Counted from the first letter of the stretch, positions 1 to 56,395 are shown. The stretch: DNA of 56,395 nt from Bacteroidota bacterium (GCA_027487625.1 JAIYDG010000641.1:1-56395), one strand, 5' to 3'. Translations and numbers: made by a program. Notes: generated by a model not told the origin, from the letters alone.

Positions 1-60
1 AAATTCAAGATTGAAGAAGATTCACGAGAATTTAATGTTTACTTAGAAATAGAATTATGA
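1..60 (+). CDS. 3' end of an upstream gene, probably a LytS-type sensor histidine kinase (partial)
   Basis: Frame 1 is open (KFKIEEDSREFNVYLEIEL*) and its stop overlaps the ATG of the LytTR regulator (ATGA). The product is inferred from the usual LytS/LytTR pairing. Confidence 0.55.
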   Translation, partial: KFKIEEDSREFNVYLEIEL

Positions 61-755
61 TAAAAGCCATAGCATTAGATGATGAGCCATTAGCCTTAGG
101 CATTATTGAAAAATTCTGCCAAAAACTGGATTATATTAAACTTGAAAAGGTTTTTACGAAACCTAATGAAGCCGAATTATACCTTGAAAAAAATCAGATT
201 GATTTAGTTTTTTTAGACATACAAATGCCATCAAAATCAGGCATTGAATTTTTTAAAATTATTCCAAGCACTTGTAAGGTTATTTTCACTACTGCATTTG
301 CAGATTATGCCGTAGAGGGCTTTAATTTAAATGCAGCTGATTATCTACTTAAGCCATTTAGTTTTGATAGATTTAAAACAGCAATTGATCGTGTAAAGGA
401 ATATTATGATTTATTAAAATCAGACCCCAATCATGAAGACAATTATTTAAATGTAAGAGCTGATTATAGTTTGCACAGAATTAAACTTAATGATATTTTA
501 TACTTTGAAGGATTTGATGATTATGTAAAAATCATAACGATTCATATGAAACCAATTGTTGCCAGATTAACAATGAAATCTCTTCAGGATAAACTACCAA
601 ACAACCAATTTGTAAGGGTTCATCGTTCCTATATTATTCCACTAAGCAAAATTGATCAGGTAAAGAATAAACTTATTCTAATAGGTGAAAAGGAAATTCC
701 GATTGGAGGTGCTTATGAAACTGATTTCACGAAATATTTTGAAAAGGAGAAATAG
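57..755 (+). CDS. LytTR-family two-component response regulator
   Basis: Receiver motifs ALDDEP, FLDIQMP, FTTAF, YLLKP; LytTR motif FVRVHRSYII. Confidence 0.95.
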   Translation: MIKAIALDDEPLALGIIEKFCQKLDYIKLEKVFTKPNEAELYLEKNQIDLVFLDIQMPSKSGIEFFKIIPSTCKVIFTTAFADYAVEGFNLNAADYLLKPFSFDRFKTAIDRVKEYYDLLKSDPNHEDNYLNVRADYSLHRIKLNDILYFEGFDDYVKIITIHMKPIVARLTMKSLQDKLPNNQFVRVHRSYIIPLSKIDQVKNKLILIGEKEIPIGGAYETDFTKYFEKEK

Positions 756-760
756 TATTT

Positions 761-1015
761 ATGATTATCCGCATGTTTACCACCAACAATTTTTTATAAA
801 TATGGAGAATGCATTTTCAAAAAGTAGTTTGGTTTGAAATTGCTGTTTTTTATGAATTTAAGACCCCGATAGGTGGTCTCATGTTTATAGAAAAATGCTT
901 GAAATGAATTCCCCAAACCTCTGGCAACGCGGACCTTTGGTCCGCGTTGCCAGAGGTTTGAGGATGCTCTTCTTTACTTATTATTTTCTATAATCATGTC
1001 ATCCCTTCAGGATTT
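761..1015. repeat. Dispersed ~260 bp REP/REPIN-like hairpin element, copy A
   Basis: Colinear similarity to 56127-56384. Contains GACCCCGATAGGTGGTCTCATGTTTATAG (862-890), a perfect 22-bp stem 914-935/939-960 with TTT loop, and an inverted unit CTATAATCATGTCATCCCTTCAGGATTT (988-1015). Confidence 0.8.
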
Positions 1016-1084
1016 TTAAGAATTTTAAGAAAAAACATGTTTCTAATTCTAATTCATGATTTAAACTTGATTTTGTCGAGCAAT

Positions 1085-1212
1085 CGGTTGGTAGCTAAAA
1101 GAAGTTGGCAATTTCGAAGCACTAAACTGTCTGCCACCATTGAACTTGATACGAAGCACAAAGCTTCATTTAACCACTTAACCGCCAATTTCTTGTAGGT
1201 GCTGTTACAGGC
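1085..1212 (-). other. attC-like recombination site (R'' and L boxes; the R' remainder lies at 4236-4243)
   Basis: R'' GCCTGTAAC lies 36 bp after the lmuB stop. The inner inverted repeat CTAAAAGAAGTTGGC (1095-1109) pairs with GCCAATTTCTTGTAG (1184-1198) at 13/15 positions. Confidence 0.8.
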
Positions 1213-1248
1213 TGGTGTTTCTTGTCTGCATTGGATAGTTTTAAAGTA

Positions 1249-2961
1249 TTATTCTTTAATTCTAAACAGCTTTTCATTTTGGGATAACTTAACTACAAAA
1301 TATTCTTCTTTGTTAATCTCTTCTGGTAGTTTGTCTTTGAGAATTGAAGCGACAAATTGAATATTATTTCTGTTAACGAAATCAGAAATTTTAACTAATT
1401 GTTTATCGTCCATTAACTCTTTTTTATCATTCAATAAGAAATGCAGACACGGAATGTTTTCATCGTCAGCAAATAAAGTGTAAGCCATATCAAAACAAGA
1501 TATTTCACCTTGTTTTTTGCCTGAACTCATGTTTGCATTGAATGAACTAAACTTATATAAGCGTTGTCCTTTTTTATTGGTAATAATGTCTGGTTTAATA
1601 GCATATTGCTCACCATACAGTTCACTTGAAATAGAAGCAAAATGTTTGTTGAATTTGTTTAACTGCGTTTTTACAACCTGTTCAAAACTATCACTGAAAA
1701 GCTCGTTGTCAATTTCACTTAGTTGTTTGTTGAATTCTTTTATGTTGGAATCAACTTCATTCAATTGTTGAATAATATTTTCAAACTCGCCTTTCTTTCT
1801 ATGCTTTTCGGTCAACTCCACAATTACTTTTTCAAGTTCTTCAAACGAATCACTTTTTGAAATTGCAGATGCTACTTTTTTTTCCTCCTCAAGTAGTCGC
1901 TTTAGAAAATTATTATTTTCTGCAAGAGATTTTTCAAGAGCGGGTAATTCTTTGGTGATATATTTTACCTTTTCCTCAATCATTGTGTTATGAAAAGACA
2001 CAAGATCCGAAAATGATTTTTGAATTGTCTTTACTTTGGTAGTTGCTTGTTCATAAATGATTTCCAATTGTCGCAAGTCAATATCTGACTTGCTAGATTT
2101 AAGTTCTGCTTCTGTTTCTTTTATCAGGTTTTTACGAATGTTAAGTTTTCCAATACTTGAACTTAATTTATTGACCTCATATTTTACTTGATTCAGTTTG
2201 TCTAAATCTTTCTCAAAGTTTTCATTTAAGTTGAAACTACTTTTCTTCTTGTTCAGTTCTTCAATATCATTGTTTATAAGAGACAAAGCTGTTTCGTAAG
2301 CCGTTTTTGTTTGATTCTTTTCAAGTCGATTCTTGTATGTATCTTCTTGTTTAAGTTTGATCAAAATTTCCTGCTTGCTATTTCCTTTTGTGAATTCACA
2401 CCCAAACAGAAAAAGATAAAGTGTTTCGTATTCTGCATCAGAAGTATATTTGTCAAGTGTCTTGAGGGTGTTGTTTATATTTTCGTCTTTATAACGGATG
2501 TTGTGGGAAATGATTTGTCGGAAGGAAGGTTTGTCTTCAAGATGGTCAGGGAATAGAGTTTTACCAAGCTCCATCTCAAAATTTTCTGCAAGTATCTGTT
2601 GGCTATTTATCCTTCTTATTCCTTCTTTTACAGATGATAAAAAATTTCTTTCTATAACAACTTCATTAGCTTCATGATTATCTAAATCAGATGTTAAAGT
2701 AAGAGTAATTAGAACTTTATTTTCAATTAGAAAATCTTTCACAAGTTTATACTCATCTCGTTTCGTTTCAGGGTCAACATATATGTTCTTTTTATCAGCC
2801 CCCAAACAAAAATCTACCAATTTCAGAACGGTAGTTTTACCAACGCTGTTACCTGTTATTTGATGTTCACTTTCGTCAACAATCAAGTTAAGCCCTTTGT
2901 GAAATTCAATTTCACGAATGACTTTAGCACCGCTTGTTATTGTTAATGATTTTATGAACAT
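1249..2961 (-). CDS. lmuB: Lamassu/ABC-3C ABC-type SMC-like ATPase (DUF2326 family, LmuB-like)
   Basis: Walker A GNSVGKTT, long central coiled coil, ABC signature NMSSGKKQG, Walker B-like FLLND; third gene of an overlapping three-gene unit. Confidence 0.85.
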   Translation of the reverse strand: MFIKSLTITSGAKVIREIEFHKGLNLIVDESEHQITGNSVGKTTVLKLVDFCLGADKKNIYVDPETKRDEYKLVKDFLIENKVLITLTLTSDLDNHEANEVVIERNFLSSVKEGIRRINSQQILAENFEMELGKTLFPDHLEDKPSFRQIISHNIRYKDENINNTLKTLDKYTSDAEYETLYLFLFGCEFTKGNSKQEILIKLKQEDTYKNRLEKNQTKTAYETALSLINNDIEELNKKKSSFNLNENFEKDLDKLNQVKYEVNKLSSSIGKLNIRKNLIKETEAELKSSKSDIDLRQLEIIYEQATTKVKTIQKSFSDLVSFHNTMIEEKVKYITKELPALEKSLAENNNFLKRLLEEEKKVASAISKSDSFEELEKVIVELTEKHRKKGEFENIIQQLNEVDSNIKEFNKQLSEIDNELFSDSFEQVVKTQLNKFNKHFASISSELYGEQYAIKPDIITNKKGQRLYKFSSFNANMSSGKKQGEISCFDMAYTLFADDENIPCLHFLLNDKKELMDDKQLVKISDFVNRNNIQFVASILKDKLPEEINKEEYFVVKLSQNEKLFRIKE

Positions 2962-3179
2962 AATTCTATTTCGCCTTTAGGATTAAGTTTTGCAACTTCC
3001 AATAAATATAACCAATCTAAACAAAGTATAAATACTGAAAATGACATCTGCTTTTTTGATTTTACTTCTTGATATAAGTCAAGCATTTTGTAACTCGTAT
3101 CTTTTTTCAAAGAGTCAATTACAAATGCACCGTTATAATAGATGCTGTTGTCAGGATGTATGTTATCAGGTAGTAGCAT
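2952..3179 (-). CDS. lmuC: ABC-three-component middle component (MC6-like, LmuC-like), 75 aa
   Basis: Likely start ATG 3179 (MLLPDNIHPDNSIYYNG...FILCLDWLYLL). It overlaps both neighbours, and its size and position match ABC-3C middle components. Confidence 0.8.
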   Translation of the reverse strand: MLLPDNIHPDNSIYYNGAFVIDSLKKDTSYKMLDLYQEVKSKKQMSFSVFILCLDWLYLLEVAKLNPKGEIELCS

Positions 3180-4134
3180 AATTGTAGCTGTCTGGGTTTT
3201 CAAAAATTTTGCACCTAATAAATGCATCTACCACAAGTATGTTAATGCAAAGTTCAAGTTCGTCAAATGGAATCGAAGTATAATTGGAACTATTCAAAAT
3301 CTTTTCTTCCACTTTAGAAATCACAGAAAAGAAAAGTTGGTCATCAGTCAAGTTACTTTTTTCTTTTGCATATTCCTGTCTAATGGTTGAGAGAACAGAA
3401 CTGCTTTTGTTGCTCCCTTGTGAATCAAATTCTGTGTAGATTTTATCGACCCTACCATAATGAACTGTATAATCATTAATGATTACTTTTGAAGCTTTCA
3501 AATTGTTGTGGGAAATTTTTCGGTCAATCTCAAAGCTACTGATTTCAGAAACTGACTCTGACTTGTCCCAATCTTCTTTGGCAAGAATATTTATTACAGC
3601 TGCTAAGTTGGATTCCAATTTCATTGGGTCAATTTCTGCCACCAATTCTTCTTTCACAAATTGGTATATCTGTTTTTGGTCATTTATATGCAGTCCTCTA
3701 ATTTTTGAAAGGATGGAGTTTTTATCGATTATGTCAGCAGAGGGAGTGAAACTAATTCCGTGAGGGTTTTTGAACGTGTCTTTTCTTAAGTCGTCAGCAT
3801 CTCTTGCAATGGAAACAAACTTAAATGTATATCCAACATATTTTTTGATTGAATCCTTGGAAAGAGAAGATTCGATTTTCTGTTTGCTCGAAGTAGATGA
3901 AACTTGAATAACAAACTTGTTTGGATGGTCAATTAGATCAATTGCCTCAACATTTTGTTGGTTATCATTTTCATTCGTAACTGTCCAGCCATAAACTTCA
4001 TTTAAGAAATATTGGTAGAAGTTTTCGGAGTGTCCATGAAAGTCCAATATGTTCAACCTTCCTCTGGAAATTATCCTAAGAGCAAGAAGGTTTAAGCGTT
4101 CTTCAATAACATTAAAATAATTTGCCCTATTCAT
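3166..4134 (-). CDS. lmuA: Lamassu effector (LmuA-like): SMEK-type nuclease-fold N-terminal domain plus ABC-3C C-terminal domain
   Basis: N-terminal HSENFY...LN...N.N...NVEAIDLID...FVIQVSS (PD-(D/E)xK-like, SMEK family); C-terminal ILVVDAFIRCKIFENP typical of ABC-3C CTDs. Confidence 0.8.
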   Translation of the reverse strand: MNRANYFNVIEERLNLLALRIISRGRLNILDFHGHSENFYQYFLNEVYGWTVTNENDNQQNVEAIDLIDHPNKFVIQVSSTSSKQKIESSLSKDSIKKYVGYTFKFVSIARDADDLRKDTFKNPHGISFTPSADIIDKNSILSKIRGLHINDQKQIYQFVKEELVAEIDPMKLESNLAAVINILAKEDWDKSESVSEISSFEIDRKISHNNLKASKVIINDYTVHYGRVDKIYTEFDSQGSNKSSSVLSTIRQEYAKEKSNLTDDQLFFSVISKVEEKILNSSNYTSIPFDELELCINILVVDAFIRCKIFENPDSYNYATT

Positions 4135-4144
4135 CTTCTGTCTG

Positions 4145-4152
4145 CAAACTTA
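4145..4152 (-). promoter_or_regulatory. Bacteroidota housekeeping -7 promoter box inside the cassette
   Basis: TAAGTTTG (TAnnTTTG consensus) on the minus strand, 10 nt upstream of the lmuA ATG. No clear -33 box. Confidence 0.6.
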
Positions 4153-4314
4153 ATCATTTTAAACGTGAATTTTATTTTCATAAAGTGTCAATATTCTAGT
4201 GGTTTATTTAGTGTTATCGTTGTTATCTTACGCTTGCCTGTAACATCCGCCCTTAAGTCGTTGAAGGTTCGTAAAACAAATTTTAAGTAAAGAAGCGGAT
4301 ATTCGTAATAGTAT

Positions 4315-5040
4315 TTAAAATATTTCACTTAAAATTCTGTTGGAATTTAATTCAGGAAACTGATGTAAATGAAACTGGTAATACCTGATTAGGGCATCCA
4401 ATACTAGTTTTCTTATATCCCTTGTGGTTTCTATTTCAAATAAATTACTCAGATTTGAACTCAGTATTTGTTTTAAAAATAAACTTTCTTGACGATTTAA
4501 AACCTCCGATGTAAACTCATTTGATTTCACAAAAATCCCTTCTTTTAAACTGAAAAATACTCTTTCATTGTCATGGAAGTTTTCAGGAAAAAAGCCCAAG
4601 TACTTAGATAAATGTGCCATAAAAAAACATGGAACATTTGCTAAACTTGTTTCTTGTAAATCTATAAATTGAATCGTATTAAATAAAAAATCAAATAGTT
4701 GTTTGTCGACCTGATTTTCTTCTCTTAAACACTTATTTAGCAATTCAGAAATAAACAATGCAATAGAAGATTTTAATAAATCATAATGTATTTGATATAA
4801 GGTTGGAGAACATTTGAGTTCTTTTATTCTTTGCAGATTTTTATTCTGTTGATGAAAAGTATCAAGCTCAAGTAAACTTAATACCTGCAATTGTGATGGT
4901 TTTATTGCACCCTTTTTACTTCTTACACCATTTACCATGTAAGATTGTAGACCATACAAATCTGTATAACATTTCAGAACAACAGAATTTTCTGAATATG
5001 GAATAGTAGAAATAACAATTGCACGAAGTTTCCCTAACAT
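4315..5040 (-). CDS. recO: DNA repair protein RecO
   Basis: N-terminal OB fold (AIVISTIPYSENSVVLKCYTDLYGLQSYMVNG), LSKYLGFFP, FSLKEGIF; 241 aa. Confidence 0.9.
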   Translation of the reverse strand: MLGKLRAIVISTIPYSENSVVLKCYTDLYGLQSYMVNGVRSKKGAIKPSQLQVLSLLELDTFHQQNKNLQRIKELKCSPTLYQIHYDLLKSSIALFISELLNKCLREENQVDKQLFDFLFNTIQFIDLQETSLANVPCFFMAHLSKYLGFFPENFHDNERVFFSLKEGIFVKSNEFTSEVLNRQESLFLKQILSSNLSNLFEIETTRDIRKLVLDALIRYYQFHLHQFPELNSNRILSEIF

Positions 5041-5043
5041 GAA

Positions 5044-5316
5044 CTATAAAGAATTGTGGGCCAGTAAGCCTTCCTTTGTAGCTAAATAAGAATATGCCTT
5101 CATGTTATCAGAATCATAGATAAAACTTCTTACATATTCCATTTTGGCTTCGTCCCAGCGCATGGCAACAATCATCTTTTTATGTATCAAAGTTTTTATA
5201 CCATCAGCTACTATTGGTGCAGGAAGATTTACTTCTTCCAAAATATTTTCAAAAGGCTCAACAAAATATACGCTGTTAAGTATATCTCTTTCTAAATCGC
5301 TTAGTTCGTATACCAT
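5044..5316 (-). CDS. Small hypothetical protein, possible winged helix (90 aa)
   Basis: Likely start ATG 5316, directly after the GT2 stop. The pattern LSDLERDIL...IKTLIHKKMIV...YLATKEG resembles a wHTH. Confidence 0.6.
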   Translation of the reverse strand: MVYELSDLERDILNSVYFVEPFENILEEVNLPAPIVADGIKTLIHKKMIVAMRWDEAKMEYVRSFIYDSDNMKAYSYLATKEGLLAHNSL

Positions 5317-5317
5317 A

Positions 5318-6454
5318 TTAAATGTGTTTTCTTCCCTTCCAATTATAACCCGCCAAATTGGCCCATATTCCAATAATTAGAACATAAAGAATATGAAAAG
5401 GTTCGGCTATCAATAAAAATAAAATTAAATAAGAACGTTTAAAAAAAAGCAGTACATCAAACAAAAATAAACCTTCAATTAAAGCTTTAATAGCAATTTG
5501 AATGAATGCCAACCAAAGGAAATTATCATAGAATATGCTCAGAATAAAATTCAATAAAATTGTTAAATTAAAGAAATAAGCAGCTGCTAAAATTGCTGTA
5601 ATAGATCTATTTTCATAATGCGTACTCTTTGAAACCCAACGTCGTCTTTGATTGGCCAATTGTTCAACCGACGAATTGGGTGAAGTGCTTACCAAGGCGC
5701 GTAAATCTTTTAAAAAAAATACTTCATTTGGATACATTTTAAATACTTTATGTAGCAAGTATTCATCATCCCCTGAAGCAATATGGTTATTGTCATCATA
5801 ACCTCCCATTTCAATAAAAACTTCTTTTTTAAAAGCCAGATTTGCTGCACTACACATATTGGGTTTCTTAAGTCTAATGGCTGCTCCGCCAATTCCAACC
5901 AATCCGCTAAACTCTAATGCTTGGATATGTTCAAAAGCACCATTTGAAGAAAATTCAACCGGAGCATAAATCATTTTACAATTGTGTTCAACAATAAATT
6001 CATTAAGTGCTTTTAACCAATCAGAATTTCGCCTACAATCTCCATCAGTTAAAACTATCCATTCGGTTTGAGCAGTATTCACACCAAATGTAATAACATC
6101 CTTTTTGTTATTAATTGCTGAAAAGGTGCTTAAATCAACCAGTTTCAAGGGGAAATTTTTATTATCCTGAATAAATTTCTCTGTAATCTCTCCAGTTTTG
6201 TCTGCTGAATGGTCGTTTAAAATAAGGATTTCGAATAAATCAAAAGGATAATTCAAACTTAAAAGACTATTCAAATTTTCAAGTATCAATTCCTCTTCAT
6301 TTCTTACAGGAATTAGAATAGTAAACTTTGTTTTGTTTTCATTTTTAAAAGGTTCTGTTCTTTGTTTTATTAAAATCCAACCAATCCAAAACATTAAAAT
6401 CAAGACAAAATAAAATGCCAAAAGCGAAAACGAAACTATATACCAAGTTATCAT
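5318..6454 (-). CDS. Membrane-bound glycosyltransferase family 2
   Basis: ILIPVRNEE, LNDHSAD, LTDGD (DxD), SGDDE, QRRRW motif; flanking TM helices. Confidence 0.92.
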   Translation of the reverse strand: MITWYIVSFSLLAFYFVLILMFWIGWILIKQRTEPFKNENKTKFTILIPVRNEEELILENLNSLLSLNYPFDLFEILILNDHSADKTGEITEKFIQDNKNFPLKLVDLSTFSAINNKKDVITFGVNTAQTEWIVLTDGDCRRNSDWLKALNEFIVEHNCKMIYAPVEFSSNGAFEHIQALEFSGLVGIGGAAIRLKKPNMCSAANLAFKKEVFIEMGGYDDNNHIASGDDEYLLHKVFKMYPNEVFFLKDLRALVSTSPNSSVEQLANQRRRWVSKSTHYENRSITAILAAAYFFNLTILLNFILSIFYDNFLWLAFIQIAIKALIEGLFLFDVLLFFKRSYLILFLLIAEPFHILYVLIIGIWANLAGYNWKGRKHI

Positions 6455-56126: not shown

Positions 56127-56384
56127 ACGATTATCCACATGTATACCAGAAGAATTTTTAATAAATACAGCATCTGTATTGAGAATTATTTTCAAAAACT
56201 TTTTGAAATTAAATTGCTCTATTCAATGAAATTAATGACCCCGAAGGCGGTCAAATGTTTATAGAAAAATGCCGTAAACCAAATTCCCCCAAACGGACGC
56301 GAACCTTTGGTTCGCGTCCGTTTGGGGGTGAGGGCAATTCATTCATTTTTGTTTACTACTATAATGTCATCCCTATGGGATTTT
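56127..56384. repeat. Dispersed ~260 bp REP/REPIN-like hairpin element, copy B
   Basis: Colinear with 761-1015. Contains GACCCCGAAGGCGGTCAAATGTTTATAG (56237-56264), a perfect 20-bp stem 56286-56305/56309-56328 with TTT loop, and an inverted unit ...ATAATGTCATCCCTATGGGATTTT (ending 56384). Confidence 0.8.
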
Positions 56385-56395
56385 AGGAAATTTCG

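Follow-up and report, generated by a model that had tools for sequence, protein, structure and literature searches.

Integrons are the textbook route for trading single genes. In the accounts available to us they are regarded as rare in Bacteroidota, and for Bacteroidetes the accessible description of IntegronFinder 2.0 lists nothing but In0 elements and a single complete integron, in Salinibacter. Here we analyze a 56,395-nucleotide stretch of a draft genome of a Bacteroidota bacterium (GCA_027487625.1, JAIYDG010000641.1:1-56395; contig C207 of the genome), which is called the window below. Its positions 1085-4243 carry a three-gene operon related to anti-phage systems, flanked by recO and a gene for a LytTR response regulator. 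We consider it highly probable that this block is one cassette of a Bacteroidota platform working like an integron, and that it moved to a secondary G|AT site inside a miniature inverted-repeat transposable element (MITE).

The closest published system is most likely that of the rAID-1 (recombinase-associated acquired interbacterial defence) clusters, described in Bacteroidales by Ross et al. (2019; bioRxiv 10.1101/471110), with which we compared the locus by description, not by sequence. In the accessible parts of that paper, a cluster starts with a XerD-family recombinase gene at its 5' end, followed by co-oriented, low-GC genes for orphan immunity proteins against type VI secretion system toxins. 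A motif is located directly 3' of the stop of the recombinase gene, and the repetitive intergenic sequences are called reminiscent of integrons by the authors. The criterion for a cluster was a recombinase at least 44% identical to BF9343_RS08045. A 2025 preprint from the same group describes, in its accessible part, the mechanism of rAID biogenesis as still open and under active research. The platform loci described below have the same architecture, a recombinase followed by co-oriented genes with repetitive intergenic motifs; at least two such downstream genes with these motifs are present at L050-L059, L065, L072 and L073. There are also differences. Those clusters are described for Bacteroidales and hold short orphan immunity genes, whereas the window holds a three-gene operon as a solitary cassette. 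The accessible text on rAID-1 gives no cassette boundaries, hairpin, crossover point or off-platform insertion. Our literature searches found no account of the present element family or of off-platform insertion in Bacteroidota, within the parts of the sources that could be seen; Fig. S4 and Tables S6-S7 of the rAID-1 paper (10.1101/471110) may show part of the site.

Insertion away from a platform is described for integrons. As far as the accessible text goes, integrases insert cassettes at 5'-GWT-3' sites (attG), cutting between G and W, and this route was demonstrated for IntI1, IntI2 and IntI3 in E. coli (bioRxiv 10.1101/2022.09.11.507474). The insert in the window resembles the resulting solitary sites (SALIN): it is a single site with no recombinase nearby, placed at a GWT-type site cut after G, and G|AT was used twice in the same genome. 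It differs in that another tyrosine recombinase would be at work and that the natural events are deduced from comparison. Xer-like recombinases also move gene modules without a dedicated IntI in the Xer-dependent pdif modules and integrative mobile elements exploiting Xer, where the module is bordered on either side by a double-stranded dif-like site of ~28 bp. Here, by contrast, there is one ~125-nt covarying palindrome per cassette, and its halves are split by the exchange.

The boundaries of the insert are placed to within one base. Positions 740-1084 were joined in silico to 4244-4330, and the joined query was searched by BLAST against the bacterium's own genome. Among 51 BLAST rows, nine matches span the join (on C466, C4, C81, C284, C455, C191, C122, C599 and C50), each an uninterrupted copy of the MITE. 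They read ..GAGCAATCATC.. where the window, in the alignment, reads GAGCAAT[C]GGTTGG ... CCTGTAA[C]ATCCGC. From this alignment the insert is either 1085-4243 or 1086-4244, one C (G on the cassette strand, the minus strand) being common to both ends. This 3159-bp insert is exact; the target site is not duplicated, and the insert itself lacks inverted termini. The site of insertion is ..GATG|ATTG.. on the cassette strand, and the minus strand at the insert end at 1085 reads ...ACCAACCG, followed by ATTGCTC. The crossover column corresponds to the conserved G of ..C-G|TTA in 23 aligned copies of the element described below. The G+C content is 32.0% in the cassette, 32.7% in the window and 34.7% in the genome. 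The window contig holds a single element and no tyrosine-recombinase match.

The MITE has many copies in the bacterium's own genome (G000) and in G002, G004, G006 and G008. Its terminal inverted repeats are ~19 bp long, and a G+C-rich hairpin at ~910-964, found as a self-complementary match, varies in its stem among copies yet stays paired. The nine uninterrupted copies carry no cargo. G004, G006 and G008 have flanks 95% identical to those of the window, the LytTR regulator included; the stop codons of LytTR and recO are a few bases apart there, and both MITE and cassette are absent. As these relatives lack the MITE and MITE copies lack the cassette, two nested events are indicated, the MITE landing first and the cassette entering it second. 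The 11-bp direct repeat around the locus, in whose place the relatives have one short LytTR/recO spacer, probably stems from target duplication by the MITE rather than by the cassette. Another MITE-like copy is present in the window at 56129-56393. A preliminary description, made from the sequence of the window, had put the breakpoints at 1084/1085 and 4243/4244. The nine copies agree within one base, and the breakpoints in these operon-free copies are exactly those it predicted. The 9-bp complementary ends, the inverted repeat and the block end that it reported are all present, and its inner repeat (1095-1109 with 1184-1198) is found inside a longer stem, 1091-1112 with 1181-1202. It also had the locus right, but the cassette entered a MITE that had landed between recO and the LytTR gene earlier, not bare intergenic DNA.

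The two ends of the cassette match each other. On the plus strand, 4236-4244 reads GCCTGTAAC and 1204-1212 reads GTTACAGGC, mutual reverse complements at 9/9 positions. In 20,000 random trials on this window that looked ±200 nt around a point 3 kb distant, a 9-mer met its reverse complement 102 times; this pairing alone is therefore suggestive, not decisive. Other evidence comes from the element at the 3' end of the cassette. Positions 1085-1212 are one copy of a conserved, ~125-nt imperfect palindrome. In alignment A1, which contains 23 copies, the 5' edge TAAC is invariant, the core is conserved, the 3' edge reads ..C-G-TTA, and variable boxes lie beyond both edges. The R'' box, the reverse complement of the first bases of the cassette (4244-4236), contains these TAAC columns, which are invariant or nearly so. 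RNAalifold independently predicts a long stem of 19 pairs. By our count, compensatory changes are found in 12/19 of them, with pairing in 96% of cells. Not one of 500 shuffles attained the observed value in any of the five measures, and slid controls gave 4-5 covarying pairs against 14 in the whole structure. The long stem contains conserved mismatches, one A.C that is invariant and a second, C.C, in most copies. The 5-nt spacer next to the crossover base equals A1 columns 132-136 (CAACC / AAAAC / AAACC), conserved and unpaired in the consensus structure. Two short inner helices are assigned tentatively to the central part. Short conserved stretches recur beyond the R boxes in many unrelated cassettes; among them are a GACAGA-rich run before R'' and a ..TAAA..GACGACA.. 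run ~15-30 nt after R', and the two runs are not complementary to each other.

The boxes of neighboring cassettes provide a further line of evidence. An nhmmer profile built on A1 picks up diverged copies of the element, and these form co-oriented arrays. For each adjacent pair, the box following the first element was set against the box preceding the second, the latter read as its reverse complement; three duplicate loci (L034, L035 and L042) were left out. At least four consecutive variable positions beyond GTTA match in 21/25 adjacent pairs, and at least five in 20/25. By the four-position measure, control pairs from different loci match in 195/2308 cases (8.4%). As 21/25 adjacent pairs match, the first bases of each cassette complement the box before its own 3' element, and the cassette ends in the window show the same complementarity over 9 nt. 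This is the signature of an integron cassette, expected only if both ends meet in a circle and pair.

Cargo of the other cassettes includes a GmrSD_N + HEPN pair, a type I restriction-modification system with SLFN, SIR2, AAA_15 + HNH, and HEPN-MNT. We scanned 23 open reading frames (ORFs) from seven platform or array loci. Eight had no Pfam match, in a scan not specifically aimed at immunity-protein families, and the matches of the others were mostly of anti-phage, restriction-modification and toxin-antitoxin types. The bacterium's own genome also has an array of at least five co-oriented elements (L028, G000:C245:8258-18128), with no recombinase before the contig end; its cassettes carry SIR2_2 with an unknown protein, and an AAA_15 ATPase with an HNH nuclease (Septu-like). 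A cassette on G047:C17 that starts with the R' box of the window (GTTACAGGCAA) was considered as a relative and proved to be unrelated.

A second insertion away from a platform is found in the same genome. A solitary 4.68-kb cassette with the same end structure is located at C268:20676-25352 (L027 4247-8923). It contains ORFs of 523, 761 and 143 aa without Pfam matches. It splits codon 6 of the HEPN (NTase_sub_bind) gene of a HEPN-MNT pair beside xerD. The site of insertion is ..TTAG|ATGG.., and in G004 and G008, where the HEPN gene is intact, it reads ..ATTAG|(A/G)TGGGA... Both natural insertions are at G|AT, with a shared G and no duplication, and the crossover is fixed within 1 nt. These two natural events prove that cassettes leave the platform. 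A recombinase fragment beside the element on C268 was considered as the platform enzyme and rejected; it is XerD.

The element is widespread. In the bacterium's own genome, nhmmer finds 20 matches, and 1085-1225 has an 87% identical copy on C245 and weaker copies elsewhere. When the whole cassette was searched against the genomes of the family, the matches were nearly all to the last ~125 nt, at 80-95% identity. The element occurs in 97/119 family genomes and in 17/17 genera. A complete genome, G128, has 21 matches, arranged in several same-strand clusters. Across an even sample of the phylum, 61/401 genomes and 37/180 genera hold the element (E<=1e-6), and 40/401 genomes hold a recombinase of the type described below (E<=1e-70). 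Both were found in 16 sampled genomes, in 6/16 of them within 20 kb and on one strand among the matches listed; these co-occurrence counts include kin, are not independent, and carry no statistical claim. Named Flavobacteriales, Cytophagales and Sphingobacteriales records also contain both. A 66-kb Chryseobacterium plasmid, NZ_CP041688.1, has two elements (L087 2140-2281; L088 6951-7086), located behind single genes for TauE/SafE and SRPBCC. The same plasmid holds a group II intron reverse transcriptase, IS110 and other transposases.

The arrays are linked to a tyrosine recombinase. TIGR02249, the integron integrase model, has sub-threshold matches in 72/119 family genomes, and many of these genes share contig and strand with elements. 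In the bacterium's own genome such a gene, encoding 365 aa, is located at C691:855-1952. Its protein scores 222 bits with TIGR02249 (cut-off 265), 208 with the XerA/integron model, 185 with XerD and 180 with XerC. Against archaeal XerA (5hxy) its alignment runs from end to end, and the catalytic residues are seen in the alignment. Ten loci were picked by hand for a recombinase and elements on the same contig and strand, and in 10/10 the arrays are downstream of the recombinase and co-oriented. Another set did not depend on the element: 19 loci in named genome records, found with the C691 protein alone, among them Sphingobacteriales, Moheibacter, Flavobacterium, Crocinitomicaceae, Prolixibacteraceae, Cecembia and Tangfeifania. 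Twelve of the 19 have ~1 kb or more after the gene. At least one element is present in 10/12, always on the recombinase strand, and none in L074 and L075.

The start of the first cassette was located as the reverse complement of the box of the first element. It is a G|TTA 89-106 bp after the recombinase stop codon in 11/18 loci, and is placed elsewhere in five more. This attI-like junction is preceded by a conserved ..TATAAAC.. and a lineage-specific inverted repeat. On C691 it is found 105 bp after the stop codon (L021, C691:855-2060). The C691 contig measures just 2765 bp, which is what breakage of the assembly by array repeats would give. Among candidates for relatives of the C691 protein, 7986 of 8000 scored at E<=1e-20. 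Relatives 48-57% identical include records named Paludibacter and Prolixibacteraceae, and the source names are 'XerD', 'site-specific integrase' and 'tyrosine recombinase/integron integrase'; a protein atlas returned only generic 'integrase family, Bacteroidota' clusters. The recombinase of L060 (CALRIT020000001.1), 97% identical to the C691 protein, lies in a metagenome-assembled genome labelled as a cyanobacterium (Vulcanococcus), a placement that is probably a binning error and not a transfer. The family's only TIGR02249 match above the cut-off is G045:C58:1439-2200 (L044; 307 bits, model positions 1-254), a gene cut by the contig end; on its 3.7-kb contig nhmmer found no element match.

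These results point to the following course of events. The cassette would excise as a circle, in which its first bases, TTACAGGC, join the terminal G and pair with the R'' box. The hairpin completed in this way would have an R stem of 9 bp, an asymmetric 1x5 loop, and an L stem of ~20 bp in which mismatches are conserved. A single strand of the site would fold, the R and L stems would mimic a core site, and the substrate would be folded single-stranded DNA. A Xer/IntI-like recombinase would normally exchange cassettes at the attI-like site ~100 bp downstream of its own gene. In the window, the enzyme encoded on C691 may have acted in trans, recombining the folded site with the secondary G|AT inside the MITE. 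Exchange at the G of ..CCG|TTA.. would leave no duplication, and the product would be a solitary cassette far from the recombinase gene. Entry into such a secondary site would be an off-target reaction, as with attG.

Several observations weigh against this reading. The box test failed in 4/25 adjacent pairs: two on C245 of the same genome, where weaker elements in between were unscored, one at L058, where the first element is low-scoring, and one at L073. No circular form was seen in the contigs, which were the only material. The exact joint 1084>4244 at the LytTR/recO locus was not found in metagenome contigs; joints such as 949>4281 and 1015>4273 were considered as the empty site and rejected, as they come from other MITE copies. 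The rejoined site folds at -19.3 (top strand) and -21.7 (bottom strand) kcal/mol, compared with -14.0 ± 3.1 for 200 shuffles, which is within ~2 sd and unremarkable. Support for the structure therefore comes from covariation, not from energy; the rejoined attC-like hairpin of the preliminary description stands as a member of a covarying palindrome family but not on its energy. The consensus of integron boxes is RYYYAAC/GTTRRRY, and beyond TAAC/GTTA the boxes here depart from it. The element is far more conserved in sequence than usual attC sites, and may for this reason serve another function as well, such as that of an RNA. No IntI passes in the bacterium's own genome, where 0/6 TIGR02249 matches exceed the curated cut-off. 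The C691 protein aligns with VchIntIA (2a3v) in two pieces, with residues 176-241, the region of the integron-specific insertion, skipped. Judged by its sequence, then, the array-linked recombinase lacks the IntI-specific insertion and is not an IntI. The role of C691-type enzymes is suggested only by their adjacency to the arrays. Two relatives of the operon also fail to support the reading. A 72%-identical operon in G042 was considered as a related cassette, and cassette ends are not clear there. In the microbial-mat run X11 an operon of 98.7% identity departs from the window at 1257 and 4145, a short way beyond the coding region on either side, and is without the cassette ends. It may exist there outside a cassette or with different ends, which may have to do with how cassettes arise.

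Other explanations account for part of the evidence. A canonical IntI, with the IntI-specific domain, could have moved the block as an ordinary integron cassette, the enzyme being missing from this draft assembly or having acted in an earlier host. Both the architecture of the site and its crossover at G|TT are integron-like, the draft is in 732 contigs, and the match on G045:C58 exceeds the cut-off. However, IntI is found in 1/119 family genomes and the element in 97/119, the G045 contig holds no element, and where context is available the arrays begin beside a Xer-like recombinase and an attI-like site. We consider this explanation unlikely. A still less probable one holds that the element is mainly an RNA element or terminator of accessory operons, and that the block came by homologous recombination between MITEs or is a trimmed island. 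The element is always found directly after the last stop codon in sense orientation, its sequence is unusually well conserved, and the operon exists elsewhere without cassette ends. But the boundaries of the insert coincide with the last conserved base of the element and with its partner box, the complementarity of boxes between neighboring cassettes has no RNA explanation, and the second insertion on C268 has the same end structure. An Rfam scan of 600-4500 at E<=1 found nothing within 1085-1225; four weak matches elsewhere were to eukaryotic microRNA or small nucleolar RNA models and ctRNA models.

Movement as a non-autonomous transposon, with a transposase acting in trans (of IS200/IS605 type or that of the MITE itself), is very unlikely. 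The block sits inside a MITE, and like IS200/IS605 elements it has a subterminal hairpin and made no target duplication, but it has only one hairpin, at one end, and no terminal inverted repeats. The ends of the MITE are 320 and 60 bp away, nine MITE copies are free of cargo, and the elements form co-oriented arrays beside a tyrosine recombinase. We give hardly any credence to the junctions being an assembly artefact in a chimeric contig of this 732-contig metagenome bin. Both the element and the MITE are repeats that break assemblies, yet the breakpoints agree with the MITE consensus base for base, and Logan contigs of run X1, which may be the source sample, cross 1084/1085 (record 2, 1015-1167) and 4243/4244 (record 8, 2898-5600) with 0 differences. 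The assembly has 6.1 Mb in 732 contigs, compared with 2.0-4.5 Mb in congeners; although its contamination is estimated at 1.2%, more than one strain or organism may be present in it.

The features of the cassette and its surroundings are collected in Table 1.

Table 1. Features of the cassette, the MITE and the chromosomal flanks, in window coordinates
Feature	Position	Strand	Evidence and remarks
Response regulator with LytTR DNA-binding domain	57..755	+	Pfam Response_reg 7.6e-19, LytTR 5.3e-18; left chromosomal flank
11-bp direct repeat AATAGTATTTA, left copy	751..761		recurs at 4307-4317
MITE, left part	762..1084		up to the cassette interruption; ~390-bp MITE-like dispersed repeat
Crossover base	1085	-	last cassette base, G on cassette strand; same base from target at 4244; nine-copy MITE alignment
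Unpaired 5-nt spacer, L' arm to crossover G	1086..1090	-	opposite a single A (1203), asymmetric internal loop 1x5
L' arm, 3' arm of long stem	1091..1112	-	pairs with 1181-1202
Central part, analogous to variable terminal structure	1113..1180	-	sequence well conserved in alignments of 26 and 23 copies
L'' arm, 5' arm of long stem	1181..1202	-	pairs with 1091-1112
R'' box	1204..1212	-	GCCTGTAAC on cassette strand; invariant TAAC + cassette-specific 5-mer
ABC/SMC-like ATPase of ABC-3C system, 570 aa	1249..2961	-	Pfam DUF2326 6.8e-21; PADLOC PDC-M68B 8.7e-40, LmuB 3.6e-16
ABC-3C middle component MC6, 91-aa ORF	2952..3227	-	Pfam MC6 2.5e-27, residues 19-90
Effector-type component, 322 aa	3166..4134	-	Pfam SMEK_N 8e-38, CTD10 1.1e-36
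Cassette leader, 109 nt	4135..4243	-	first 8 bases (4243-4236, TTACAGGC) = cassette half of R' box
MITE, right part including terminal inverted repeat	4244..4306		contiguous with the 762-1084 equivalent in nine own-genome copies and G002
11-bp direct repeat, right copy	4307..4317		flanks MITE
recO	4315..5040	-	Pfam RecO_N 1.6e-14, RecO_C 1.6e-16; right chromosomal flank

Three minus-strand ORFs occupy the cassette between 4134 and 1249. By their predicted domains they resemble ABC-3C and Lamassu systems, with an ATPase of ABC/SMC-like type, the small middle component MC6, and an effector-type protein whose C-terminal ABC-3C domain is CTD10. The true start of the MC6 gene is probably later than annotated, as the 91-aa ORF overlaps the gene upstream. 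The operon differs from Lamassu in that the best PADLOC model for its ATPase is PDC-M68B, of a candidate system, and that the N-terminal domain of its effector is SMEK_N. The only PADLOC match of the effector is Aga_REase-PNTD1-PNTD2 (9.4e-22, residues 1-165), and no LmuA-type model matched it at E<=0.01. From these profile matches the operon is best called an ABC-3C / PDC-M68 system, a relative of Lamassu and not a classical one. The sequence TAAGTTTG at ~4146-4153 in the leader, read by eye, fits what we take to be the -7 promoter motif of Bacteroidota. The operon would be expressed from its own leader and would defend against phage.

We also considered the occurrence of the cassette in metagenomes. 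Contigs were examined from 4 of the 21 listed sequencing runs that hold cassette sequence, and there is no RNA run among the 21. In a groundwater run from another study, a 3090-nt contig covers 1157-4244 at 97.7% identity. It stops 2 nt beyond the 4243/4244 boundary, and the flanks of the window are absent from it.

Compared with integrons, including the sedentary chromosomal kind with species-specific attC repeats, the system shares the main features of the cassettes. At the end of each stands an imperfect palindrome that comprises R''/R' boxes (..AAC / GTT..) and L''/L' arms, and exchange takes place at G|TT. They form co-oriented arrays, an attI-like site adjoins the recombinase gene, and, as described in the accessible integron literature, defence systems occur as cassettes. 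In Treponema integrons, as far as the accessible account goes, the recombinase is transcribed towards the cassettes, as it is here. The differences concern both enzyme and site. The recombinase here is without the IntI-specific insertion and scores below the TIGR02249 cut-off. The attI-like site is downstream of the recombinase gene, whereas in classical integrons it is upstream. The site is nearly invariant across the phylum, whereas in attC it is usually just the structure that is conserved. A 1x5 loop separates the R and L stems; this loop and the conserved A.C and C.C mismatches may or may not be equivalent to the extrahelical bases of attC. The accessible text of the published classification holds the insertion to be essential for integron function and not conserved throughout an 'integron-like' subgroup. 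The element works like an integron cassette yet fails a defining feature of integron membership.

In substance these results support the preliminary description, with four changes. It had proposed an integron-type cassette at a non-attI site. The logic of the cassette is borne out by the box test, but the recombinase tied to the arrays is not an IntI, and the target is a MITE. For the trans-acting IntI-like recombinase that it invoked, a candidate with an attI-like site is present in the same genome on C691, but it lacks the IntI-specific insertion and is below the cut-off. The platform probably equals or extends rAID-1. Its Lamassu operon is three-component and Lamassu-related, but is an ABC-3C system: the match to LmuB is weaker than that to PDC-M68B (Table 1), and no LmuA was found. 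Its expectation that related sites would be present beside other genes was confirmed, as the element flanks many of them. What is probably new here are the exact cassette boundaries, the off-platform insertions at G|AT, and the multi-gene anti-phage cargo.

A wider reading has, in our judgment, an even chance of being correct. The system would be a phylum-wide Bacteroidota counterpart of the integron, in which an IntI-domain-free, Xer-like enzyme stockpiles cassettes by means of a nearly invariant, folded ~125-nt site and scatters them to G|AT sites in chromosomes and plasmids. In that reading cassettes extend in size from 0.7 kb, for single genes, up to 7 kb, for multi-gene defence systems, rAID-1 would be one branch, and the two insertions described here would be the first mapped products, placing the crossover at the G of CCG|TTA. 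The locus and its relatives supply the anatomy of such a system: the cassette unit, a covarying folded site, an attI-like entry, the crossover base and an exit from the platform. They show that entire multi-gene systems of anti-phage type travel as such cassettes across orders and on plasmids, and suggest that cassette recombination at a hairpin site does not need the IntI-specific domain.

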